Shown piece after piece: positions 9,203 to 64,000 of a stretch of DNA of 64,000 nucleotides. The position numbers and the translations under genes are program-made. The stretch spans positions 64,001 to 128,000 of the forward strand of contig CM000151.3 in the NCBI GenBank assembly GCA_000004695.1, read 5' to 3'. Within the stretch, counting starts at the first letter, position 1, and every line of letters begins with the position of its first letter. Source of the DNA: Dictyostelium discoideum (lineage: Eukaryota). The notes under the pieces are model-generated. The model saw only the letters and a list, made by a program, of their open reading frames with translations. It had not been told where the DNA came from and made no database searches.

Positions 9203-9345
<143 letters not shown>

Positions 9346-9359
9346 TTTATTTAGATTAA

Positions 9360-21048: not shown

Positions 21049-22746
<1,698 letters not shown>

Positions 22747-29267: not shown

Positions 29268-29716
29268 TATGTGGCCAAGAGGTAGTGATGTGTAAGTAAA
29301 ATATTATTAAAATTAATTAATTTTTATGTATTAAAAATTAATAACTTTTATAAAGACCAAATAATTATAAATTCTTTCTAGGTTGTTTTTTGAATTATTA
29401 TAAGACAGAGACAGACACAAATACGGGTGATCTCACCACAAATTATAATCATGCTTATTTACGTCATAGGCCAAATCAATTAGGAGAAATAACAACTGAT
29501 TTATTTTATTATAATAGTTTTCAAACTTTTCAATCAATTTGTTCATTTACCAGCAATTATTGTGATAATGATGGCCAGGGTCATTTACAACACAACGTCC
29601 GATATGGTAGAATCATTTTCTCATATAAAGTTTTTAGAAATTTAAATTCTATAAGAGCAGGTGAAGAGTTTAATACAATTGATGTCCTCTATGAAAATAA
29701 TAATTTAAATAGTATA

Positions 29717-29750
<34 letters not shown>

Positions 29751-29866
29751 TTAATAATATAAATAATTATAATAATAACAATAGTAACAATAATAACAAT
29801 AATAATAATAATAATAATATTAATAATAATAATAACAGTATAAATAATATAAATAATAGTATTTAA
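29268..29866 (+). CDS. Hypothetical protein, tentative two-exon model: 29268..29290 and 29356..29866
   Basis: ORF 29390..29866 starts with TTG and has no in-frame ATG. An upstream mini-exon ATGTGGCCAAGAGGTAGTGATGT ends at a gtaagt donor. The acceptor ataaag at 29354-55 gives a phase-consistent product: MWPRGSDVPNNYKFFLGCFLNYYKTETDT... The C-terminus is a long N-rich tail. No domain recognised. Confidence 0.25.
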
Positions 29867-29919
29867 AAATAAATTATTAAAAAATAAATAAAATATTTTA
29901 TTATATAAAAAATGTAAAC

Positions 29920-36019: not shown

Positions 36020-36238
36020 TTATTTTCTTCGATTAAATAAACAAATTGAATATATTTTCCTATTACAATTAAAATTATTAATCAAGAAAAGTGGATAATT
36101 TTTACCAAAATAAAAAGATACAAATGTTTTATTATCTTTTTTGTTATTGTTGTTGATGGTCGTTTGAATTTGTTTTTTTAAATCTTGAATTTTATCTATA
36201 ATTTGTCTTTGATTTGCTAGATCGAACCATTGCATCAT
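36020..36238 (-). pseudogene. 3'-terminal fragment (last ~60 codons) of an F-box/LRR-like family gene
   Basis: QRQIIDKIQDLKKQIQTTINNNNKKDNKTFVSFYFGKNYPLFL matches the C-termini of the 616- and 618-aa paralogues. Unrelated sequence lies upstream. Confidence 0.6.
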
Positions 36239-36546
36239 ATCAAAATTTTGCTCGGAATTGATAAAATTATTATGTGAACAGACACGAAATATGTTCGTTA
36301 TACAATTTAAAAAAATAATGCAGTTTCTACTATTATTATTATTATTATCATTACCAATGTTATTTAAATAACATAATAATCCTTTAAAAATATTATCATT
36401 TTTTGGAATTTCATCTAACCCGATTGATTTCTCACCAAAATCAGTGTTATTTAATGATGTTTCTAATGATGTTGATGATGGTGAGTTTGATTTTTTTAAT
36501 TCTAATAGATATTTGATGATTTTATTTGAACCTGTCTCGATTGAAT

Positions 36547-36951
36547 TTAAAAGATCTGTTTTTGTTGGTAATTGAATTCATTTATAAATAATTTATAAAT
36601 TTCTAAATTCTTTGATTGTATTATTGCAGTTGATACATAAATTGGTGAAGAGTAATAATACCTTTGAATTTTGAAAAAGTTTCTATAAAATTTGAAATCA
36701 TTTTTAATTATTTCAAACAATTTCTTTAAATAAATTAAATCTTTACGCCAACTAGATTGATCAGACTCTTTACGCCAACAAGTTTCACCAAATTCTAAAT
36801 ATCTACAATTTCTATAAACTTTTTCTTTTAAAATACTAATTTGATTTGAATCTATTAGTTTAGTTATTGACGATACTGAATCGTAACTAAATGAATATTG
36901 GTTATACATAAATGAGAATATCTTTTTATAAATTGCTTTATTTCTAAACAA
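36547..36951 (-). pseudogene. Fragment of a second duplicated gene family; a near-identical copy lies at 42300..42668
   Basis: ORF KLFRNKAIYKKIFSFMYNQYSFSYDSVSSITKLIDSNQISILKEKVYRNCRYLEFGETCWRKESDQSSWRKDL... starts at TTG. The frame is open upstream only to an in-frame TAA and has no canonical donor. An adjacent upstream ORF encodes ..EIIERIKIVKKRKREYEEEHERKENTNSFNKIIK*. Both lie inside the duplicated block. Confidence 0.35.
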
Positions 36952-37360
36952 TTTCCAAAATAATATTTCAATTGGTTCTATATTATCTGTAATTGTTTAT
37001 TTTATGATTTTATTGAATGAATTAGTATTTTCTTTTCGTTCATGTTCTTCTTCATATTCTCTTTTTCTTTTTTTTACAATTTTAATCCTTTCAATTATTT
37101 CTTGTTTATTTAAGTGATTTATTTCTATACAATATTTCTTTAATTGATTTTAAATTCTTTTTCTCTAATTCACAATTATTATCATTATCTTTATCATCTT
37201 ATTAATTAAAGATGATAAAAATATATAAATTATTTTTCATTGTTGTGGTGGTGGGGGAAATTAAAAAATAAAAAAAAAAAAATATAAAAAAATATAAAAA
37301 AAAAAAAATAAAATAAAACAAATAAAAAACATTTTTATGGTGTAACGGATTTTATTTAGT

Positions 37361-37391
<31 letters not shown>

Positions 37392-37439
37392 TTTTTTTTT
37401 TTTACTATTTCTTTGAAATTTCGTTGAATATTATTTTTA

Positions 37440-37600
37440 AACGAATTCTAATGACTACATAACCCCTGTAAGCGGTTAGCAGCCCCTTGTAATCCTTACA
37501 ACCAGTGTAGCCCACAAATCCGGCTATTCGTCTTACAGTTCCTATTAGCCGCTTACAGGGTTACTTAGTCATTTTGCGCGTTGGCGGTGTAATTAATATT
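37440..37600. other. GC-rich island with a ~20-bp imperfect inverted repeat (CCCCTGTAAGCGGTTAGCAG ... CCTATTAGCCGCTTACAGGG). Candidate structured ncRNA or MITE-like element.
   Basis: About 50% GC within a region that is more than 80% AT. The inverted repeat was read directly. It contains CCCACAA, which resembles the Dictyostelium upstream sequence element (DUSE) of ncRNA genes, and CCTTACAACCAG, which resembles the class-I RNA motif CCTTACAGCAA. A second copy with a deletion lies at 43200..43290. Confidence 0.4.
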
Positions 37601-38028
37601 TATTTATATTTTTATTATTCGCTGGAAAAAATTCATTATTTTATTAGATATTTTATGATACGTAATTTCTCATATATCTAATAAAATATTGAATTTTCTA
37701 AAATTTTTTTTTCCAGCGAATAATAAAAAAAAAAAAACTGTTTTGGTTAACCATGGGGTGATTTATTGTAATTTTTTAATAATTTTAGTTCTGTTTTTTT
37801 TTTTTAAATGGAGATATCAGAGAGATTATTATGATATTTTGAATAATTGGATCATAGTAATAAACAATATTTTTAATTTTTTTCTTTTTTTTTTTCTTTT
37901 CATTCTTTTTTTTTTTCTTTTCATTCTTTTTTTTTTAGTACTTAATCTTTATTTTTTTCATCTTTCAAAATAAAAAAAAATATTTATATAAATTTTAACT
38001 TTAAATTAAATAAATAAATAAATTTTAG

Positions 38029-38452
38029 AATGACTGAAGAAGTGCATAAATTGAAAATTACAATATTTACTGATAAAGGGAGATCAACAATAAGTGGTGG
38101 AGGTAAGTTAATTAGAATTATTAATTTATAAATATTTAATTTTGGTTTATATATTAAAAAATGTAACATTTAATTTCATTCTTCTGGCTTTTTTAAAAAT
38201 ATAGATTTTCCTCTACCTGTATTACCTTATCCTGCACCATATACTTTTAGATTATTTGATTACGAAATTGAAGGCCCAAATTTAACCAATAAAGAATTTA
38301 AAGTAAAAACAGGTAAAATTGAATACAAAGGAGAAGAATTTGATATTCCTTCATCATCTAAGGGCTCATGGAGAGGAGTAGATGAAGAAATGGATTTAAT
38401 CTATGTTACAATATATCCAAGTAGACAACCAAAAAAAGTTTTTCATTATTAG
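38029..38452 (+). CDS. Small hypothetical protein (about 107 aa) with two exons, 38029..38101 and 38205..38452. Copy 1 of two.
   Basis: ATG..GGTGGAG then a gtaagt donor, and an aaatatag acceptor, phase 1. Product: MTEEVHKLKITIFTDKGRSTISGG-DFPLPVLPYPAPYTFRLFDYEIEGPNLTNKEFKVKTGKIEYKGEEFDIPSSSKGSWRGVDEEMDLIYVTIYPSRQPKKVFHY. Copy 2 at 43780..44202 is about 93% identical at the protein level, and its splice sites are conserved. Confidence 0.55.
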
Positions 38453-38757
38453 ATCTTAAAAACAGATCTGAAACAATTAAAACAAAAATAAAAAATTTTA
38501 AAATTTTATATAAAAAAATAATTATGATTAAAAAAAAAATATGTGTGGAAAAAAAAAAAAATTAAAAATTAAAAATATATTTGTTTATGGTGTTATGTTT
38601 TTTGGTAAGGTTTAAAGTGATCAAAAAATTATCATTCAAACTTGTAAAAAAACAATAATAATAAATAATAATTTAAAAACAAAATAAAGATTAATTTGCA
38701 TTATCCAATTTTTTTTTTTTTTTTTTTTTTTTTGATTTTGTTTAATTTGATTCGATT

Positions 38758-38792
38758 CTATTTGATTTGATTTGATTTGATTTGATTTGATT

Positions 38793-38800
<8 letters not shown>
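38758..38800. repeat. (GATTT)n pentanucleotide repeat followed by poly-T. Also present in copy 2 at about 44815..44862.
   Basis: Read directly. Confidence 0.9.
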
Positions 38801-38844
<44 letters not shown>

Positions 38845-40272
38845 CATTATAATCTTTTTTCCAATTATTTCCATTATATATAAATATATTGGAAAATCTT
38901 CCATTTTCCATTTTCCGCCATAATATGGATTTTTTTTTTCAGGAAATTGGCCAACACTATTGTATACTATATTCATAACAATCTGGAAGGTTGATGGCTA
39001 TATCAAGAGGATCATCAGAAGTCCATGGGAAGGGAATTTATTGGTTTCGGAAACATCATATGGATGAATGATACATTTGAAATTTAAAACATTATTATTA
39101 ATTGAGGCATTTTTATTAGATCGAGTTAAAATTTTATTGTGGAATTTTCATAATTAATGTGGAATTTTCCACTTTTTTTTTTTTTTTTAGAAATTTTTCA
39201 CCCCTACCCCTTTTCAATTTTATTTGAAAAATAGAATGTTGATATTTGATTTGATAATTTTCAAATTATTTATTAGTAATTGTAATTAATTGAAATAGAA
39301 ACCTTATTTTATTTTATTTTTTTTAAATATAATTACTGATAGTTTTGTACTGTAATTGGTAACTCTTTATTATTGTTTTGAAAAATGGATTATTAATACG
39401 ATTCAATTCTTCTTAATACTTATTATGACCTTTAATTTTAATTTCTTTAAAAAATATGTTTCTTGATTTTTGTTCTTGTTTTGTTGAAATATTATTTATT
39501 AAATTTTTAAATTCTTTAATAAATTCATCAACTAATTCCTTATCATTATATAATGTAAAAAAAAAAAAAAAACTCTGTTTATGACAACAAAACAGTCACA
39601 ATTTTTTTAACTATAAAACAAAAATTATTATCTTATTTTAAATTTTTACTTTATTTTTTTTCCATGCGGGTTCAAAAAAAAAGCTTTTTTTTTTTTTTTT
39701 TTTTTTAGTAAACAAAATTTTTTTTTTTTTTTTTTTTTTTTTTCGCACCCCTTCATTTACTTATTTTTCTTGTTGATATCATTAAAATCAATAGTTTTTT
39801 TCAAAATGTCAAAAAGAATTATTAATTTCAATTGGTTCATATAGATTGGGAAATTAATGAATCATTTAATAAAGACAATTATTAACTTTATTTATTTTAA
39901 ATTGTAGATATATTCTCAAATCCAAAAACAGGTATGGGTCATTCAAATGATGCTCTTTCACTTTTTATAAAAGCTTAAAGAGAGATTGGTTATTATCCAA
40001 ATATTGATAAAGCAATTTTCACAACTCCAGTCACAACTTTAGCTAAAACCACTATTGATTTAACTGCCCATGTTATAACTATATTAATGTGGTGTTGAGA
40101 TCATTACAAACTATGAAGTATTTCTAGGAAAGAGATGAAGGTACTAACAAGATCTTACTTTTCAAAAAGTTGATTTAACATTGACTCTTTAATAAATTGA
40201 ACATCTTCATTTGTTTCAAATAAGACAAGATCAAAAAATACTACTTTAATAACATTATTGGGATCCAAATAT

Positions 40273-41064
40273 TTACCAACGTGGCATTTTTTTAAATCTT
40301 GGGTGATGAAATTTCATTTTAGAGAGTTTATCGATTGTATTGGTTACTAAAGCAATAAAATCTTGATTTTTCCAATCATTGTGAGAAGCTGGTGATACAT
40401 ATGGCATCATTAAAGCTGGCTTGGAGTTCCAAGTTCCAACCTATTATAAATATATATATTAATAATTGTTTTGATTTATACCACCATTTTTAACTTTGAA
40501 ATAAAAATTACCATAAATACTTACATGTGCACCCAAACCCCAAAGTTCTCTCCACTTTTCACACTCTTTGATCAATTCGTTTTCTGGTTTAATATTACAT
40601 TTTGAGAATTTTAATACGAAAACATGTCCTTCCAAAATACCAAAAAAGACACAACATAACCATACTCTTCCATGTTCTCCTCCTTTTAAATCATATAATA
40701 AAACACATGCCTTAACTAATTTCAATGGGGTATCTATAAAATAATGTAATTTTTTGATATTAATGTTGACCCAAAACCATGAAGATTGAACTACTTGTAT
40801 ATACATTCTTTTTACATCAAGTAAAGGAATTTCTGATTTTCTTCTAGAGTAATACATCTTCATCAATACAGAGTATAAAACTTTTGGTAATTGTTGATCT
40901 GAATATTTAAAAACCTTTGAGCCATATAAAATACGTTTACAGTGAGTTGGTGGTATAATATCATTATAATCGTTCGTTATTGTGGAATTTTGTAAATTTG
41001 AGGTTGATGTTAAAGTATCTGGTTTCTGAAGAGTTGTAGTAGTTGATTCATTTGATAATTCCAA
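40273..41064 (-). pseudogene. 5'-truncated copy of a duplicated gene (PD-(D/E)xK-like family). Exons 41064..40525 and 40440..40273 are retained.
   Basis: Encodes ..ESTTTTLQKPDTLTSTSNLQ..KRMYIQVVQSSWFWVNINIKKLHYFIDTPLKLVKACVLLYDLKGGEHGRVWLCCVFFGILEGHVFVLKFSKCNIKPENELIKECEKWRELWGLGAH, then a gtaagt donor, then VGTWNSKPALMMPYVSPASHNDWKNQDF..PRW*. The upstream part of the gene is replaced at 41080 by the duplicated A/B block. Confidence 0.5.
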
Positions 41065-41232
41065 TTTGGGAGCTTGAGCAGACTATGCTCCTAGACACAA
41101 AGTAATTTATTATAGTTTTATATATAATTATAATTTTATATATATAATTATAATTTTATATATATAATTATAATTTTATCAATTTAGATATTAAAAATAT
41201 ATTTTTTTTTTTTCTATTTATTTGTTAAGCAA

Positions 41233-42299: not shown

Positions 42300-43090
42300 T
42301 TATAAATAATTTTCTAAATTCTTTGATTGTATTATTGCAGTTGATACATAAATTGGTGAAGAGTAATAATACCTTTGAATTTTGAAAAAGTTTCTATAAA
42401 ATTTGAAATCATTTTTAATTATTTCAAATAATTTCTTTAAATAAATTAAAATTAAATCTTTACGCCAACTAGATTGATCAGACTCTTTACGCCAACAAGT
42501 TTCACCAAATTCTAAATATCTACAATTTCTATAAACTTTTTCTTTTAAAATACTAATTTGATTTGAATCTATTAGTTTAGTTATTGACGATACTGAATCG
42601 TAACTAAATGAATATTGGTTATACATAAATGAGAATATCTTTTTATAAATTGCTTTATTTCTAAACAATTTCCAAAATAATATTTCGATTGGTTCTATAT
42701 TATCTGTAATTGTTTATTTTATGATTTTATTGAATGAATTAGTATTTTCTTTTCGTTCATGTTCTTCTTCATATTCTCTTTTTCTTTTTTTTACAATTTT
42801 AATCCTTTCAATTATTTCTTGTTTATTTAAGTGATTTATTTCTATACAATATGATTTTGCAATTTCTTTAATTGATTTTAAATTCTTTTTCTCTAATTCA
42901 CAATTATTATCATTATCTTTATCATCTTATTAATTAAAGATGATAAAAATAATTTAAATATATAAATTATTTTTCATTGTTGTGGTGGTGGGGGAAATTA
43001 AAAAATAAAAAAAAAAAAAAAAATATAAAAAAAAAAATAAAAAAAAAAAAACAAATAAAAAACATTTTTGTTGTGTAACGGATTTTATTT

Positions 43091-43137
<47 letters not shown>

Positions 43138-44727
43138 TTTTTACTATTTTATTAAATATTTATTTCTTTGTTTGAATATTATTTTTAAACGAATTCAAAT
43201 GACTACATAACCCCTGTAGCCCACAAATCCGGCTATTCGTCTTACAGGGCCTATTAGCCGCTTACAGGGGTTGTGTAATTAATATTTATTTATATTTTTA
43301 TTATGGGCTAATTCTTTTTTTATTATTTAATGATAATTTATATTAAAATATGATATATTATTAATTAATATTTAATATTAATTTGTTAAATATTTTATTA
43401 AATTATAATCTCTTTATAAAAAGTGAGAAATTACTGTCATAAAATATCTAATAAAAAAATAAATTTTCTAAAAATTTTTTTTCCAGCGAATAATAAAAAA
43501 AAAAAAACTATTTTGGTTAACCATGGGGTGATTTATTGTAATTTTTTAATAATTTTAGTTCTGTTTTTTTTTTTTAAATAGAGATATCAGAGATTATTAT
43601 GATATTTTGAATAATTGGATCATAGTAATAAACAATATTTTTAATTTTTTTCTTTTTTTTTTTTCTTTTCATTCTTTTTTTTTTAGTACTTAATCTTTAT
43701 TTTTTTCATCTTTCAAAATAAAAAAAAAATATTTATATAAATTTTAACTTTAAATTAAAATAAATAAATAAATTTTAAAATGACTGAAAAAATGCATGAA
43801 TTGAAAATTACAATATTTACTGATAAAGGGAGATCAACAATAAGTGGTATAGGTAAGTTAATTAGAATTATTAATTTATAAATATTTAATTTTGGTTTTT
43901 TTATTAAAAAATGTAACATTTAATTTCATTCTTCTGGCTTTTTTAAAAATATAGATTTTCCTCTACCTGTATTACCTTATCCTGCTCCATATACTTTTAG
44001 ATTATATGGATACAAAATTGAAGGCCCAAATTTAACCAATAAAGAATTTAAAGTAAAAACAGGTAAAATTGAATACAAAGGAGAAGAATTTGATATTCCT
44101 CCATCATCTAAGGGCTCATGGAGAGGAGTAGATGAAGAAATGGATTTAACCTATGTTACAATATATCCAAGTAGACAACCAAAAAAAGTTTTTCATTATT
44201 AGATCTTAAAAACAGATCTGAAACAATTAAAACAAAAATAAAAAATTTTAAAATTTTTTCATAATTGAATTGATATAAAAAAATAATTATTATTAAAAAA
44301 AAAATATGTGTGGAAAAAAAAAAAATTAAAAATAAAAAATATATTTGTTTATGGTGTTATGTTTTTTGGTAAGGTTTAAAGTGATCAAAAAATTATCATT
44401 CAAACTTGTATACCAGTGTTCGACCTTTTTCCACTTTTGGAAAAAAAGGGTGTTTTTTTTAATTTCCCTTCCATTCCATGTTTTTTTTAAAAACTTCCAT
44501 ATTAATATAATATTTTTTCCATTTTTTTTTTTTCAATTAACCAGGGAAGGCCGAAATTTTTTTTTTTATTTTTTTTTTGTAATATCTTAATAAACGTTTA
44601 TTAATTAAAAAAAAAAAAAAAAAAAAAAGTAAAATGATAAATAATATTAATAAAAAAACAATAATAATAAATAATAATTTAAAAACAAAATAAAGATTAA
44701 TTTGCATTATCCAATTTTATTTATTTA

Positions 44728-44776
<49 letters not shown>

Positions 44777-44858
44777 ATTTTGTTTAATTTGATTCGATTC
44801 TATTTTATTTTATTTGATTTGATTTGATTTGATTTGATTTGATTTGATTTGATTTTTT

Positions 44859-44899
<41 letters not shown>

Positions 44900-47800
44900 C
44901 ATTATAATCTTTTTTCCAATTATTTCCATTATATATAAATATATTGGAAAATCTTCCATTTTCCATTTTCCACCATAATTTGGATTTTTTTTTTTCCGGA
45001 AATTGGCCAACACTATTGTATACTATATTCATAACAATCTGGAAGGTTGATGGCTATATCAAGAGGATCATCAGAAGTCCATGGGAAGGGAATTTATTGG
45101 TTTCAGAAACATCATATGGATGAATGATACATTTGAAATTTAAAATATTATTATTAATTGAGGCATTTTTATTAGATTGAGTAAAAATTTTATTGTGGAA
45201 TTTTCATAATTAAAATTATTTTTTTTTTTTTTTTTAGAAATTTTTCACCTTTACATTTTCCCTATTTTTTCTTTTTTTCACCCCTGCCCCTTTTCAATTA
45301 AAAAAAAATAGTGAAAAAAAAAGTAAATTAATAAATTATAAAAAAACAAATAAAAATAAATAAATTATATTATTAATTTTATTTGAAAAATAGAATGTTG
45401 ATATTTGGTTTGATAATTTTCAAATTATTTATTAGTAATTGTAATAAATTGAAATAGAAACCTTGATTAAGAGGTACCTCATTTTATTTTATTTTTTTTA
45501 AATATAATTACTGATAGTTTTGTACTGTAATTGGTAACTCTTTATTATTGTTTTGAAAAATGGATTATTAATATGATTCTTCTAAATACTTATTATGACC
45601 TTTAATTTTAATTTCTTTAAAAAATATGTTTCTTGATTTTTGTTCTTGTTTTGTTGAAATATTATTTATTAAATTTTTAAATTCTTTAATAAATTCATCA
45701 ACTAATTCCTTGTCATAATATAATGTAAAAAAAAAAAAAAAAAAAAACTCTGTTTCTGACAACAAAACAGTCACAATTTTTTTAACTAAAAAACAAAAAT
45801 TATTATCTTATTTTAAATTTTTATTTTATTTTTTTTCTGTGTGGGTGCAAAAAAAAGCTTTTTTTTTTTTTTTTTTTTTTTTTTTGGTAAAACAAAATTT
45901 TTTTTTTTTTTTTTTTTTTTTCGCACCCCTTCATTTACTTATTTTTCTTGTTGATATCATTAAAATCAATAGTTTTTTTCAAAATGTCAAAAAGAATTAT
46001 TAATTTCAATTGGTTCATATAGATTGGGAAATTAATGAATCATTTAATAAAGACAATTATTATTAACTTTATTTATTTTAAATTGTAGATATATTCTCAA
46101 ATCCAAAAACAGGTATGGGTCATTCAAATGATGCTCTTTCACTTTTTATAAAAGCTTAAAGAGAGATTGGTTATTATCCAAATATTGATAAAGCAATTTT
46201 CACAACTACAGTCACAACTTTAGCTAAAACCACTATTGATTTAATATTCAATGAAAACAGTTGGAATCAAAATAAATCAAAACCAATTTCAATTTATAAT
46301 TTAAATGGTAATTCAATTGAATTGAAATTATTTTATAGTGTATTAGAAAACAGTTTTAAATGTAATGAAATCCAATTCGATGAATGGATTGAATTAGTTA
46401 CAAAATCAAATGGAAAATCTTCAAAAAGATATTCAACATTCCACATTCTCAATAATCAAAATTAATGAATCAATCATTTTAAATAATATTAATAATAACA
46501 ATAACTAAAATAATAAAAAATAAAAAATATCATAATCAATAGTTGGCAAACGTACACTATTAACCAATGCTTAAGTACCAGGTTGTGTTGAAAATGATCC
46601 CAAAGAATATATACCTATCACCTTGGTTTGTAATTGGAAATGAATAATCTGTATATTCTCAAATAAACAATTAATGGTGTCGTACTATCAACTGGTTTCA
46701 AATACAATACCACATTACAATCTTGTTCAGAAAGATATTATTATTTTTATATATTTTTTAAATGTTATAAATTAATTTTTCTTTGAAAAAAAAAAAAAAC
46801 AAAACAAAATAAAAAGTACTTTTTTTTTTAAATTTAATCAAATTAATGGAAAATGTCCAAACCAAATTACAAGAATTTAAAACAAATTAATAAACTATTT
46901 TTATTTGTATAATGAATTTGAAAGTTGATTTTATTTTATTTTATCATTTGATAGATGATATTTTGGTGAATAATAATGAAAATTGTGATCCAACTTTTTA
47001 ACTGCCCATGTTATAACTATATTAATGTTGTGTTGAGATCATTACAAACTATGAAGTATTTCTAGGAAAGAGATGAAGGTACTAACAAGATCTTACTTTT
47101 CAAAAAGTTGATTTAACATTGACTCTTTAATAAATTGAACATCTTCATTTGTTTCAAATAAAACAAGATCAAAAAATACTACTTAATAACATTATTGGAA
47201 TCCAAATATTTAGCAACGTGACATTTTTTTAAATCTTGGTGATGAAATTTCATTTTAGAGAGTTTATCGATTGTATTGGTTACTAAAGCAATAAAATCTT
47301 GATTTTTCCAATCTTTGTCAGAAGCTGGTGACACATATGGCATCATTAAAGCTGGCTTGGAGTTCCAAGTTCCAACCTATTATAAATAGATATTAATAAT
47401 AGTTTTGATTAATACCATTTTTAACTTTGAAATAAAAAAATAACCATAAATACTTACATGTGCATCCAAACCCCAAAGTTCTCTCCACTTTTCACACTCT
47501 TTGATCAATTCATTTTCTGGTGAAATATTACATCTTGAGAATTTTAAAACGAAAACATGTCCTTCTAAAACACCAGCGGAGGCACAACATAACCATACTC
47601 TTCCATGTGCTCCTCCTTTTAAATCATATAATAAAACACATGCCTTAACTAATTTCAATGGGGTATCGATAAAATAAAGTAATTTTTTGATTTTAATGTT
47701 AACCCAAAACCATGAAGATTGAACTACTTGTATATACATTCTTTTTCCATCAAGTAAAGGGATTTCTGATTTTCTTTTAGAGTAATACATCTTAATCAAT

Positions 47801-48010
47801 ACAGAGTATAAAACTTTTGGTAATTGTTGATCTGAATATTTATAAACCTTAGAGCCATATAAAATACGTTTATAGGGAGTTGGTGGTAAAATATCATCAT
47901 TATCGTTCGTTTTTGTGGAATCTTGTAAATTTGAGGTTGATGTTTAAGTATCTGGTTTCTGAAGAGTGGTAGTAGATTCATTTGTTAATCCCAATTTGGA
48001 AGCTTGGGCA
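42300..48010. repeat. Segmental duplication, copy 2, comprising units D and E. It includes copy-2-specific segments at about 44400..44630 and 46210..47000.
   Basis: Collinear and near-identical with 36593..41080. Contains the second GC-rich island (43200..43290), the second copy of the small gene (43780..44202), the (GATTT)n repeat, and the longer copy of the PD-(D/E)xK-like gene. Confidence 0.8.
43780..44202 (+). CDS. Small hypothetical two-exon protein, copy 2 (paralogue of 38029..38452)
   Basis: MTEKMHELKITIFTDKGRSTISGIG / DFPLPVLPYPAPYTFRLYGYKIEGPNLTNKEFKVKTGKIEYKGEEFDIPPSSKGSWRGVDEEMDLTYVTIYPSRQPKKVFHY. The intron positions match copy 1. Substitutions are mostly non-synonymous-tolerant, so both copies appear intact. 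Confidence 0.55.
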
Positions 48011-48972
48011 GATCCATCTGAAATAGGTAACCAACATACCCTCCAGCTCTCATATGTTGTTGAAATACCATAAACATCTTCCTGACCATACATTTCAGCG
48101 ATACTTAACACGTAATTCAACGTTTGGCCATGAAGCTTATCATTCTCCATAATGTTTTTACTTGGCTTTTTAACTTCAATAATACCTATAGGTAACCCAA
48201 TTGAATTTGCAAGTACCATAATATCAGGTTTCAAATCACTAACACCAAAATAGCTTGAACAATATGCATTTATACCACATGATTTGATAATGTCATTAAC
48301 TGCGGTTCTAACATAAAAAGCAATGTCGGATTCTGTGGAGTAATGGAGGTAGCTTCCGTTTCCAAGAGACCCCCATAATAAATTGTGGCATGGAATTGGT
48401 TTTATGTCTGCTAAAATTTCAAAACTTTTCGATACCAAAGTTGCAGGTTGATGATTTTTCCCAACAGATGGATTTGACATTGAGCCTGACTTCTCACCCA
48501 AAGGAGGTAAAGCATTAGCAAAAATATCCTTCTTTGGTTCTGTATTATGTAAATTGTATATTAATTAGTTAAAAAGTTTTAAAAATTAATTTATTATGAT
48601 TTAACCTACCATACAAAATATTCTTCTTTGGTTCTGTATTATGTAAATTGTATAATTAATCAGTTAAAAAGTTTTAAAAATTAATTTATTAATTATGATT
48701 TTAAAAGGGATAAACCTACCATATAAAACATAAATATGAGTTGGAATATTGTTTTCATTTAATTTGGTTTCGATATCCAATTCTTTTTCCCCCAATCCAT
48801 CACCTACTGGTTGTTTATCGAAGATTGATAAATCTTTTGTTTTATATTGTACTCCATTATCGCTAATATATTCTGCTATTATTTTTAAAACATCATATAT
48901 TCTGTTAACTGACTCAAATTTAATTTCATCTTTTTTATTATTTAAATAAACAATACAACTAAAAGAAACCAT
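47110..48972 (-). pseudogene. Longer copy of the duplicated PD-(D/E)xK-like gene. It carries an in-frame nonsense codon and indels.
   Basis: Exon 1 (48972..~48718) encodes MVSFSCIVYLNNKKDEIKFESVNRIYDVLKIIAEYISDNG..., ending at a gtagg donor. It continues ..EKSGSMSNPSVGKNHQPATL..DLKPDIMVLANSIGLPIGIIEVKKPSKNIMEND.. (D...E-x-K, resembling a restriction-endonuclease-like fold). There is a TAA at 47944-46 where copy 1 has TTA (Leu). There is a frame change between 47981 and 47799, and single-base deletions in the last exon relative to copy 1. Confidence 0.5.
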
Positions 48973-54040: not shown

Positions 54041-56704
54041 TTTGTTATTAATAATAGTAATAATAAAAATAATGGAGCAACAACAACAACTACAACAACA
54101 ACTACTACTACAAATTCAAATTCAAATTCAACAAAATCAAAAGTAGTTGTTAATGATTCATCACCAAATTTAATAAGTGCATCACCAAAAGGGTTAGGTA
54201 GTTCACAAGGTTCATTAACAACAATTAATAATCAAAAGAAATTAACATTATCTCCACAAAGAGCAAGTTCAACTACAACAACAAGTGTAAATAAACCACC
54301 ATTGAAATTAAAGGCAATTTCAAGTCCACCAATTACACCAAATGTATCAACACCAGAGAGATGTTTTGTAATTAATGATAAGAATAAACATGTTATGATA
54401 TCATCAGAAACTACGATTCACAATGTTAGTGGACTATCATCAATTAGTACACCAATAGTTAGTGATGCTGCAATTGCAGAATTAAGTAAATGTAATGACC
54501 ATGATCAAAAGAAATTTACAATATTCTGTACAGATTGTGATCAATTACTATGTGATGAATGTTTAAATAACAATCAGCAACAACATGAAAATCATCAATT
54601 AAATAAAATCATTCAAGAAGCTGAAAAAAGAATTGGAGATATTGAATCAATGATAATTACAACTTCATTATGTCCAAATAGATTAATTAATAAAAAGAAT
54701 AAAATTGAAAAAATAATTCAAGATAGTGCATTGGTTTTAAAAGATACTAAATTGAAAATTACTACTGATATCGATACAATGATTGAAAATTTAAAAGAGA
54801 GAAAGAATGCATTGATCAGTCAAATCGATAAAGAATATGAAGAACAGAAATTAGAATTAAAAGATCAAATTGAAACTATTAATACAACAATTGTTGATAT
54901 TCAAAATAATACATCAATCACTCAAGGTATTGTTTCATTATATCTTAATCAAGTTGATTCTGAAATGTTATCAACTTCATTATTGAAAAAGTATAGTGAT
55001 CTAAAAAGAATGGATCAATTATCTGATAAACTTTCAAATAATTTAGAACAAAATATTGAATGGAAATGGGAACCTGAATATCATTTCCCACAATTATTTA
55101 CTCGTTCAAATGGTGAAAAAACTACTGTTGTATATAGAACTAAAAGAGTATCTGTTGGTGTATCTTCTTCACCAACTGGTACTGGTAGTAATGGTACACC
55201 ACAGCAACAACAACAACAATCAGCAAATGGTAATCCAACAATTATTACAACACCACCATTACCACCAATTTCAGCAAATTCACCAAGTCCAACATCATCA
55301 TCATCATCAACATTAATTGGTAATATTATTAAAAGATCATCACCACCTCATCTACCACTAAGTAGTCAAAATTATGATAATTTTGGTTCAACACCACCTA
55401 GATTAACTACAAAATTATCTTCACCAAATTTATCAATTTCAATGCCAACTTTTCCACAATCAAATTCTGTTCAACAGAATGGTAGTACTTCATCAATAAT
55501 GAAACAACAATCACATGGTAGTAAATTAAATGATAATATTAATACCAACAATAATAATTCACCAAGTCCAACATCATCATCAACAACATCTACAAATGGA
55601 TCAAATACAAAAATTCAATTAAAAAATCCAGTATTTGGTAAATTATTAACTAGAAAAGATTCTGTAATTACAGCAAGAAGAAATTGGATTTATGGATTTT
55701 CAGATCATCAAGTTGAAATTTATGATAATGTTACAAAAGTTTGGAGAGGTGGTTCAAAAATACCAAAGAAATCAATAGAGTATAGTAGTATTTATGATAA
55801 TAATTGTACAATCTATAGATTTGGTGGTAAGGAGACACCAAATGATATCTATTGTTATAATGTTGATAGAGATATTTGGGAACACAATAAAGTTAAAATA
55901 CCATCGAAAAGAAATGCTCATTGTTCAGTTTTCGATGGATTAAGATACATTTATTTAATTGGTGGTGCTGATAGAGATAGTAGTAAATTATTGGAAAGAT
56001 TTGATATTGAAACTCAACAATGGACTAAACTAGCATCCATGAAATTCGGTCGTAGTTATTTCAATGCTTTCTATCACCCTACTAAAAGATGTATTTACGT
56101 ATTGGATGGCTATGTTAATAAAGACAAGAAATCCTCTGTTGAAATGTACTCACTTGAAAAGAATCAGTGGAGTGTGATTTGTGAGATAAATCAACCAAGA
56201 TATCTTAGTGGTGTCTCATTTGATGGTTCAAAATATATAAATATAATTGGTGGTGTTGATAGATCAAACTCTCGTGATATTAAAACTATGGAAAGATTTG
56301 ATACATCAACTCATAAATGGGAAATACTAAATAATGAACCAAAATCATTACTATCTCATACTTCAAGTTCAATGAATTTAATGGTAGTTCAATCACCACA
56401 ATTAAAGAAAAATAATTCATTTTCTTCAATTTCTTCTCATTCATCTTTAAATTCTTCATCTTCAAATAATGGTATCAGTGGTAGTGGTGGTAGTGGTGGT
56501 GATAATGAAATTCCAACTGAAAAAATGCAATTCTTTAATACTTCATTTTTTGATGGTGAACAATTCATTTTTTTCTATGGTATAAATATTGATGAACATG
56601 GTCCACTCTTATATAAATTTAGTATAAAAACAAAGAAATTTGAAAAGATTCCAATCGATAATACTTTGGATTTATTTAGTACTCTAATTTTTGTTTCAAA
56701 ATAA
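53705..56704 (+). CDS. RING finger / B-box / coiled-coil / kelch-repeat protein (TRIM-like architecture)
   Basis: 999-aa single ORF. C3HC4 RING: CPNCLKVFNNPRQLECDHILCTRCIEG...CPVCDK. B-box: CNDHDQKKFTIFCTDCDQLLCDECLNNNQQQHENH. Coiled coil at ~aa 300-420. Four to five C-terminal kelch-type blades (IYRFGGKE..IYCYNVDRDIWE; YLIGGADRDSSKLLERFDIETQQW; IYVLDGYVNKDKKSSVEMYSLEKNQW; IIGGVDRSNSRDIKTMERFDTSTHKW). Long S/T/N/Q-rich linkers. Confidence 0.8.
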
Positions 56705-63305: not shown

Positions 63306-63342
63306 ATGATGACACATAATAATAATAATAATAATATCACTG

Positions 63343-63407
<65 letters not shown>

Positions 63408-64000
63408 TTAAATAATAATAATAATAATAATATTACTGATGATAATAATGATATACTTTCAATTATAAATAATAATAATGAAAATAGTAAATTATCAATT
63501 TTATTAATTGGTGAAATATTAAGATATTGTTGGAATGATAAATATAGTGTATTTGCATGGAAGGTGTCATTATCATTAGTATCGAAAGGTGTGTTTAAGA
63601 TTGTTTCAAGTTTTGCAAATAGTATTAATTTAGTATCAAGTGATTTATATCAACATCTTAGAAATCAATGGTGTATATTTAAATCAATAGATTCGCTAAC
63701 GACATCATTTAAATTTTTGGAAGGATTCGTTGACGAATTTAATTTCAATTTATTAGAAAAGAAACAAATTTATTTACCAAAAGATTGTTCAATTGATAAT
63801 ATTGACAGAGACAAAATTCAGGATCCCTTATCATTATTATCAAGTTTAACCATTAGGGGACCCGCCGCATCATATGTGAAAAAAGAGAAAGTTGTATTAC
63901 AATTACTATTATCAAGTAACACAAGTTCATTTAAACATTTTTCAATGATTTCACATAAGAATACACTGTTGAAGAATATTTTCAGTTTTCTAGAACAGTG
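63306..64000 (+). CDS. Hypothetical protein, 5' portion only; the ORF runs off the window end
   Basis: ATGATGACACAT at 63306. The frame is open for about 230 codons to the window edge. After (AAT)n-encoded poly-N tracts, the region is non-repetitive: LLIGEILRYCWNDKYSVFAWKVSLSLVSKGVFKIVSSFANSINLVSSDLYQHLRNQW... (F-box-like?). Not in the ORF track because it lacks a stop. Confidence 0.4.

Follow-up and report, generated by a model that had tools for sequence, protein, structure and literature searches.

Known cis-elements of Dictyostelium promoters are 6–30 bp long. A palindrome that spans some 145 bp is unusual among them, and the G/C-rich blocks of these promoters have usually proved functional upon dissection. 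Motifs containing G/C are rare in these promoters and are where factor sites have been mapped, the DimB site CCCCAC being an example (PMC3253789). The stalk gene staC (DDB_G0271196) is inducible by DIF-1 and c-di-GMP and is used as a marker (PMC9117722, PMC8808424, PMC6198379); it is given as restricted to D. discoideum (PMC9117722). The lacZ reporters of the marker set to which staC belongs fuse full 5′ intergenic regions (PMC9117722, PMC8808424). staC is one of few marker genes for stalk induction by c-di-GMP and DIF-1, and neither a promoter element nor a terminal transcription factor for this response is described in the literature examined.

The thug-S repeat of D. discoideum hosts multicopy miRNAs. 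It is described as an intron-bearing DNA transposon (PMC4894637) and is therefore a larger element than the palindrome described here. Nearly all miRNAs of D. discoideum are intergenic and confined to the species, and T-rich tracts precede them; pri-mir-1177 extends into its downstream gene (PMC6161686; PMC11014262). Accepted miRNA hairpins of this species measure 101–151 nt and fold at −0.43 to −0.70 kcal/mol/nt (PMC11014262 Table S3); precursors are called where the energy falls below −0.2 kcal/mol/nt and the duplex region is largely paired (PMC6161686). The class I RNAs, Rfam family RF01414, are 42–65 nt long (PMC7919456). Their conserved 11-nt motif adjoins the 5′ half of a short terminal stem.

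The GC-rich island compared here with these systems lies on chromosome 2 of D. discoideum, in a stretch of 64,000 nt that was analysed as a whole and is called the window. The reading that we tentatively favour, while giving it less than an even chance, is that of a species-specific palindrome resident in a promoter, which acts as DNA and boosts late stalk-type transcription, and which is neither an RNA gene nor a mobile element.

A GC-rich palindrome in an AT-rich intergenic region

The island is the sole non-coding GC island of the window, where all other stretches of at least 40% GC are coding DNA. It reaches 46.9% GC at 37446–37590, against 15.4% in the left flank (36952–37439) and 14.6% in the right flank (37591–38029), which places it at the 99.9th percentile of 150-nt windows across the 64 kb. 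The preliminary description, which had put the island at about 50% GC within AT-rich DNA, is confirmed, and the feature is not a product of chance. The parts of the island are given below by window position, none of them with a strand. Two further full-length copies, used for comparison, lie 5′ of the paralogues DDB_G0271196 (staC) and DDB_G0271178 (loci L004 and L005).

37440–37583 (AX4 chr2:101440–101583): island copy 1, a full-length but eroded GC-rich imperfect palindrome, recognised by sequence, folds and GC content
37449–37481: left arm of the inverted repeat, TAATGACTACATAACCCCTGTAAGCGGTTAGCA
37482–37542: apical region, with a small TAGCC/GGCTA stem that has GCCCACAA in its loop, and an unpaired bulge that holds CCTTACAACCAG
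37543–37574: right arm of the inverted repeat, which, compared with the other copies, is short of one G and has a G>T change that breaks a pair
37583–37590: G/T-rich tail adjoining the palindrome, GGCGGTG in copy 1 and GGGGGTG in L004 and L005

The palindrome spans about 145 bp, with a spacer of about 60 nt between its arms. The exact core of the inverted repeat is CCCTGTAAGCGG / CCGCTTACAGGG, and a weak extension of the outer stem pairs AACG (37440) with CGTT (37582). In the best copy (L005) the 33-nt arms are 91% complementary. Inverted-repeat arms had been reported as 20-mers; arms are present and are longer than claimed, but the quoted 20-mers are only partly complementary. Two short strings on which an RNA-gene interpretation had been built, the 11-mer-like CCTTACAACCAG (37494–37505) and CCCACAA (37512–37518), do occur in the island.

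As had been stated, nothing coding spans the island: no annotated AX4 protein takes in island residues, and the only open reading frame is a spurious one of 36 codons. In assembly GCA_054883475.1 a gene has been modelled with its start within the L005 island; this model was rejected, its frame reaching a stop after 26 codons.

Copies in a duplicated, species-specific module

The two islands of the window sit within a 5.7-kb segmental duplication, each between a family-B gene on the minus strand and, on the plus strand, a two-exon gene of the staC/csb family with a Dicty_CAD domain. The copies and their surroundings are as follows.

43188–43279 (chr2:107188–107279), no strand: island copy 2, truncated by two deletions, one of 39 nt between TGTA repeats (at 43214/43215) and one of about 24 nt (near 43272) that takes out the right outer arm
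36595–41082, no strand: segmental duplication unit, copy A, which pairs with 42306–48012 at 93–94% identity
42306–48012, no strand: segmental duplication unit, copy B, which pairs with 36595–41082
36020–37005, minus strand: DDB_G0271328, a family-B gene divergent from island copy 1, assigned by protein match
38030–38452, plus strand: DDB_G0271326, a two-exon staC/csb-family gene with a Dicty_CAD domain, whose ATG lies 447 nt downstream of island copy 1
42300–42722, minus strand: DDB_G0271322, a family-B gene divergent from island copy 2, assigned by protein match
43780–44202, plus strand: DDB_G0271320, the member of the staC/csb family that neighbours the truncated island, an exact match to UniProt Q55BG3 and the lowest-expressed paralogue
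28652–49472, no strand: D. discoideum-specific block that holds both islands; D. citrinum and D. firmibasis lack it at the syntenic site, and D. dimigraforme has about 5 kb of unrelated DNA in its place

The genes adjacent to the islands match the AX4 proteins DDB_G0271328, DDB_G0271326, DDB_G0271322 and DDB_G0271320 at 98–100%, and a published table places DDB_G0271326 at chr2:102030–102452 (PMC5295588), so that the window corresponds to AX4 chr2:64001–128000. An independent D. discoideum assembly contains both window islands in a 17.4-kb stretch of 99.6% identity, so that their arrangement does not stem from misassembly.

The preliminary description had counted two copies and had noted the clean 39-nt deletion of the second. 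Both copies are real and the 39-nt deletion stands, but the second deletion had been overlooked, and the window pair are duplicates of one another within a set of at least four copies, none of them independent. The islands of staC and DDB_G0271178, which are older paralogues, at 93–94% identity, lie 515–528 nt upstream of the ATG within about 2 kb of collinear similarity. All four islands occupy the same module, family-B gene / island / staC/csb-family gene, at 447–528 nt upstream of the staC-family ATG and divergent from the family-B gene. The multiplication of the island, upstream of a stalk-gene family of recent duplication, is thus explained by the segmental duplication of its module. A profile search with nhmmer over the window and seven Dictyostelium loci, about 220 kb together, found no further or diverged copies. 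An association of the island with family-B genes as such was rejected, as four family-B paralogues in another locus (L003) are without it.

Copy-specific inverted duplications occur in the same intergenic region, at 37620–37718 in copy 1 only and at 9250–9312 of L005. The AT-rich hairpin at 37620–37718 was considered as a second conserved structure and set aside, since it is confined to copy 1.

The module is peculiar to D. discoideum. The window runs collinear with D. citrinum as far as 28651 and again from 49473, and the 20.8 kb in between correspond to about 470 bp in that species; the corresponding gap in D. firmibasis is about 217 bp. No relative of the island is found at the syntenic sites of the three sister species (D. 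citrinum, D. firmibasis and D. dimigraforme), and homology searches with family-B and staC-like proteins returned matches from D. discoideum alone. A flanking 1214-aa open reading frame is 88% identical to a protein of D. citrinum and 84% to one of D. firmibasis.

Folding and divergence

As RNA, the island would form a strong hairpin on either strand. A 132-nt segment of copy 1 folds at −45.6 kcal/mol on the plus strand and −53.3 on the minus strand (z −6.9 and −7.2), and none of 200 dinucleotide shuffles gave an equally stable fold. The full copy 1 (37440–37583) folds at −48.8 (plus) and −54.2 (minus), with z of −6.3 and −5.6. Comparison with shuffled controls had been proposed as a check on the candidate structure, and at z of about −6 to −7 the hairpin comes through it.

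The copies outside the window fold better still. On the plus and minus strands, respectively, the full-length copies reach −63 and −70 kcal/mol in L005, −57 and −74 in L004, and −49 and −54 in copy 1. Per nucleotide, copy 1 folds at −0.34 to −0.38 kcal/mol/nt, and L004 and L005 at −0.40 to −0.51 (z −9.5 to −11.4). Of the four islands, the two in the window have decayed furthest.

Selection for the RNA fold finds no support in the three full-length copies, which show no covariation: compensatory pairs number zero on either strand, a count of low power at 2–6% divergence. Every variable pair (11/11) is broken on the plus strand and 7/11 are broken on the minus strand, the other four persisting solely as G-U wobbles. 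The four transitions at paired positions all keep pairing as G-U, on the minus strand only (P about 0.06–0.12).

Neither is there a sign of constraint in the rate of change. Pairwise divergence of the island is 1–5.4%, compared with 2–7% in the AT-rich flanks, 1–5% in the staC-family intron and a dS of 0.02–0.065, so that no conservation above the neutral rate, and no purifying selection, is detectable against these three references. Since the arms differ at 3 of 33 positions and the copies by about 2–6%, the island is young. It was probably imported from elsewhere, and its GC content is explicable without selection.

A candidate promoter element

The islands occupy the position expected of a cis-element, in the 5′ intergenic region of regulated genes. 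The four family genes are silent until about 18 h and maximal at 24 h (PMC5295588). Their final values in two series are 218 and 413 for staC, 197 and 460 for DDB_G0271178, 93 and 212 for DDB_G0271326, and 23 and 21 for DDB_G0271320 (PMC5295588). Ranked against the integrity of the hairpin, expression falls in the order of the islands, from L005/L004 to copy 1 to the truncated copy 2. DDB_G0271320, beside the truncated island, is about 10–20-fold below staC and DDB_G0271178 and 4–10-fold below DDB_G0271326, in a comparison of four genes that is confounded by other promoter differences, by the AX4 model of DDB_G0271320, which is longer at 204 aa, and by the mapping of unique reads to paralogous genes. 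Downstream of the island, the copy 2 promoter is nearer to those of L004 and L005 than the copy 1 promoter is, which makes the truncation the most conspicuous difference.

A possible course of events would begin with the island entering or arising once, in an ancestral module of family-B gene, island and staC-like gene. The module would then have been segmentally duplicated on chromosome 2 to give four or more copies. Within a promoter of about 85% AT, the island would present a dyad-symmetric cluster of putative G/C-containing factor sites, and this cluster would raise late (18–24 h) stalk-type transcription of the adjacent gene. The palindromic nature of the island makes it unstable, so that hairpin-mediated slippage deletions and uncompensated point changes erode the copies one by one.

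Judged from sequence and published expression values, the island itself, and not linked differences, may set promoter strength, and it may bind a factor. Known factor motifs have no convincing match in the island; its GCCCAC agrees with the DimB site at only 5/6 positions. GTAA/TTAC is enriched in the island (P about 0.007), largely because of the palindromy itself. The case for a promoter element is weakened by the neutral level of island divergence, at which purifying selection is not detectable, and by the unusual length of the palindrome.

The same neutral rate is the first argument for a somewhat unlikely alternative, in which the island is the functionless leftover of a single insertion or of a local inverted duplication (filler or foldback DNA), hitch-hiking with the duplications of its module. 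AT-biased mutation and palindrome-driven deletion would now be erasing it, and the differences in expression would have other causes. The lack of compensatory pairs, with all variable pairs broken on the plus strand, fits this account, as does the loss by copy 2 of about 63 nt through microhomology-flanked deletions while the neighbouring genes stayed intact. The intergenic region has produced other copy-specific inverted duplications, and the three sister species have no relative of the island at the syntenic site. Against a relic stand the order of expression, which follows island integrity, and the usual functionality of G/C-rich blocks in dissected Dictyostelium promoters; moreover, a neutral rate at only 2–6% divergence has little power against sites that constrain a minority of positions.

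A possible hairpin RNA locus

The fold of the island is also what a young hairpin-RNA locus would show. On this account, which we consider unlikely, the island is transcribed, more probably from the minus strand in the direction of the family-B gene, and its transcript is processed by DrnB to miRNA- or siRNA-like 21-mers, the copies forming a young species-specific family at differing stages of decay. Its energies, which vary between copies and strands from −0.34 to −0.51 kcal/mol/nt, and its largely paired duplex put the island within the range in which miRNA precursors are called. The 144-nt hairpin has z down to −11, and the minus strands of L004 and L005, at −0.49 to −0.51 kcal/mol/nt, fall among the accepted miRNA hairpins of the species. 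Known miRNAs are likewise mostly species-specific and intergenic, and mir-1177 offers a precedent for a precursor in front of a gene (PMC6161686; PMC11014262). T-runs precede the island on either strand, but these are ubiquitous in the D. discoideum genome.

The retention of pairing by the paired-position transitions points the same way, to the minus strand, but amounts to four same-direction changes of marginal P, and compensatory changes are absent. Of the window copies, one is degraded (−0.34 to −0.38 kcal/mol/nt) and the other truncated. Neither the hairpin sequences of the Liao 2018 supplement nor the Meier 2016 supplements contain the island.

Published transcript models also speak to expression. 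In the developmental time course of Rosengarten et al., strand-specific libraries depleted of rRNA were sequenced at 2-h intervals, and uniquely mapped reads alone were counted (PMC5295588). Their intergenic lncRNA models include none in chr2:25987–239150 or chr2:240837–554610 (PMC5295588), intervals that take in the window and the DDB_G0271178 locus (chr2:341 kb) and that by gene order should include staC. The antisense models nearest to copy 1 end before the island, CUFF_712_1 covering 36467–37022 (plus) and CUFF_713_1 covering 38004–38709 (minus). No intergenic lncRNA or antisense model lies over any placed copy. The catalogue argues against a stable long transcript over the island and is uninformative on small RNAs.

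A more far-reaching version would make the four islands a newborn, species-specific family of hairpin small RNAs that was co-duplicated with the fast-evolving staC/csb genes. Dicer would find near-perfect substrates in the staC and DDB_G0271178 copies and an eroded one in copy 1, and copy 2 would be dead. This version we regard as distinctly unlikely.

Mobile-element and class I RNA readings

The island had also been put forward as a MITE. A MITE or foldback element would here be a non-autonomous DNA transposon, or a piece of a known element (thug, DDT or Tdd), inserted in the ancestral promoter, and we think this improbable. The island is small, its 33-nt arms would serve as terminal inverted repeats of 91% identity, its GC content is foreign to the surroundings and points to imported sequence, and it is species-specific. 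However, no target-site duplication of 3 bp or more adjoins any plausible termini of the three full-length copies (copy 1, L004 and L005). The four copies share one position within collinear modules, with none at unrelated sites in about 220 kb of Dictyostelium DNA, and the four L003 family-B paralogues lack the island. The MITE claim therefore fails on both counts, target-site duplication and dispersal beyond the duplicated module. As a statement about origin, it could be combined with the promoter, relic or small-RNA readings.

Foreign collections yielded no source for the sequence. Scans of metagenome, GTDB and viral collections with the stem pattern gave no matches. Scans of metagenome and GTDB data with 19-mers of the apical segment gave only chance matches of 19–29 nt in GC-rich bacterial contigs. 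An 18-mer scan of the viral collection and BLASTN against plasmids and phages found none. A bacterial, phage, plasmid or viral origin was accordingly rejected, nothing beyond chance having emerged, and the same absence of matches tells against a mobile element. Literature searches with 10- to 14-mers of the island returned nothing relevant.

Almost no credence attaches to a class I RNA or another small ncRNA gene driven by a DUSE (strict pattern WCCCAYAA, expected some 60 nt ahead of a transcription start or TGTG box), for which only CCTTACAACCA, with two mismatches to the class I 11-mer, and CCCACAA inside the island speak. Rfam models were run at the gathering score over the whole window and at E ≤ 10 over 36900–38100 and 42900–43900. 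Neither window copy matched any family, class I (RF01414), snRNA, snoRNA, SRP and rRNA fragments included, even at E ≤ 10, so that the covariance-model search suggested in the preliminary description, with class I RNA and snRNA in view, returned nothing. Likeness to the class I 11-mer at two or fewer mismatches occurs 11 times against 8.3 expected by chance, and the string in question lies in an unpaired internal bulge of the 144-nt hairpin, not beside a terminal stem. The hairpin is itself far longer than the 42–65 nt of class I RNAs (PMC7919456). GCCCACAA does not fit the strict DUSE pattern, whose single match in the window, at 55086, is inside a coding region. About 60 nt downstream of CCCACAA there is no AAATGTG box and nothing RNA-like, the sequence there being AT-rich and unconserved among the copies. 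The class I and DUSE reading is refuted on those defining features tested. ARAGORN found no tRNA or tmRNA gene.

Of the structured element first proposed, the stable hairpin and its non-coding nature survive, and the class I RNA, DUSE and MITE interpretations do not.

Comparison with known systems

The island is of modest interest as a candidate for a promoter element, with a proto-hairpin locus as the alternative. As a discrete, deletable block of 145 bp that has a naturally truncated allele next to a paralogue with 10–20-fold lower expression, it makes a cheap lead for promoter dissection. If small RNAs are made from it, the copies would offer a rare view of the birth and decay of a hairpin across paralogous copies in one genome. 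If it is neither a promoter element nor a source of small RNAs, it is an ordinary palindromic relic, and would then warn that a GC island with a hairpin in an AT-rich genome is by itself no sign of an ncRNA gene.

[quoted passage not shown] MITEs and foldback elements, including thug-S, share with the island a short, hairpin-forming structure with terminal inverted repeats. Unlike them, the island has no target-site duplication or dispersed copies, and segmental duplication accounts for its copy number.

The precursors of ddi-mir-1176, -1177, -1179 and others are closer. Like them, the island is intergenic and species-specific, of similar length and, in its best copies, of similar energy; like mir-1177, it lies upstream of a gene. 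It differs in being a candidate by fold only, absent from the Liao 2018 precursor list, in having four paralogous copies in unequal decay, and in being much more GC-rich than its surroundings.

The closest comparison for the candidate promoter element is with the DimB sites of ecmA, ecmB and pspA and the G-boxes of GBF. Those elements are 6–30 bp long, whereas the island is one long palindrome of about 145 bp without a convincing motif match. In common with them, it is rich in G/C within 5′ intergenic DNA that is otherwise AT-rich, holds C-rich and G/T-rich runs (GCCCAC and GGGGGTG), and precedes, by a few hundred bp, a stalk gene that is regulated in development and responds to DIF-1.

A species-specific mosaic of duplicated genes

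The island and its neighbouring genes lie within a long block that is specific to D. discoideum.

28652-49472: D. discoideum block, 20.8 kb, with no counterpart at the syntenic position in D. citrinum or D. firmibasis

The syntenic position holds only ~470 bp in D. citrinum and ~217 bp in D. firmibasis, while D. dimigraforme carries ~5 kb of unrelated sequence in place of the block. Within the block, segmental duplications in both direct and inverted orientation form a mosaic that draws on four gene families, namely family A (616-618 aa), family B, staC/csb, and DUF5898, and several of the family members are fragments or pseudogenes.

Divergence of the staC/csb paralogues

Four staC/csb-family paralogues were compared, two from the window and one from each of the loci that carry older copies of the module (L004 and L005), in which a family-B gene, the island, and a staC/csb-family gene occur together.

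38030-38452 and 43780-44202: paralogues in the window
L004 10001-10422 and L005 10001-10423: paralogues of the older modules

Among these genes dN is 0.04-0.12 versus a dS of 0.02-0.065, giving dN/dS ratios of 1.7-5.5. Exon identity is 88-93% (up to 97% for the two window copies), lower than that of the intron, 3' flank, and intergenic DNA, which are 93-99% identical. Ratios above one, combined with exons that are less conserved than the intron and flanks, are sequence signatures that point to positive or diversifying selection on this small Dicty_CAD-domain stalk protein following recent duplication.

DNA and transcripts around the island

Copy-specific, AT-rich palindromes adjoin the island.

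37620-37718: palindrome in the window
L005 9250-9312: palindrome with 29-nt arms (97% complementarity) and a 5-nt spacer

Beside island copy 1, the hairpin of ~100 nt was formed by an inverted duplication of sequence ending in TTCCAGCG. Local inverted duplication or template switching thus appears to occur readily in the intergenic region around the island. Directly left of the island, both older module copies contain ~430 bp of AT-rich low-complexity DNA (L004 8890-9312, L005 8840-9298), a segment missing from both module copies in the window.

At L005 9417 in assembly GCA_054883475.1, the apical stem of the island carries a T>C change that creates a minus-strand ATG, at which a 333-aa gene model begins. 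This model is probably an annotation artefact, as the frame stops after 26 codons. Two antisense transcript models, CUFF_712_1 (36467-37022, +), overlapping DDB_G0271328, and CUFF_713_1 (38004-38709, -), overlapping DDB_G0271326 and correlated with this sense gene at 0.84, both stop short of the island (PMC5295588).

The ncRNA promoter element DUSE, which the preliminary description proposed for the island, has a single strict match in the window (55086-55093, +; TCCCACAA), located within Kelch/B-box gene coding sequence. This match is most likely due to chance, since 9.4 are expected in shuffles versus the one observed. Self-BLAST of the window returns mostly long microsatellites, which are ordinary for the D. 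discoideum genome.

2401-2609, 9203-9352, 21363-21536, 22413-22626, 29694-29896, and 63316-63494: long (ATT)n/(AAT)n microsatellites

DUF5898 genes

The DUF5898 family of the block comprises DDB_G0271324 and its duplicate, of which copy 1 looks truncated.

47944-48501, 40459-41064, and 47380-47799 (all -): DUF5898 genes

The N-terminal part of their products contains a D...EVK motif and weakly matches the HSDR_N family of type I restriction enzymes; given these two features, it would be predicted to adopt a PD-(D/E)XK-like nuclease fold.
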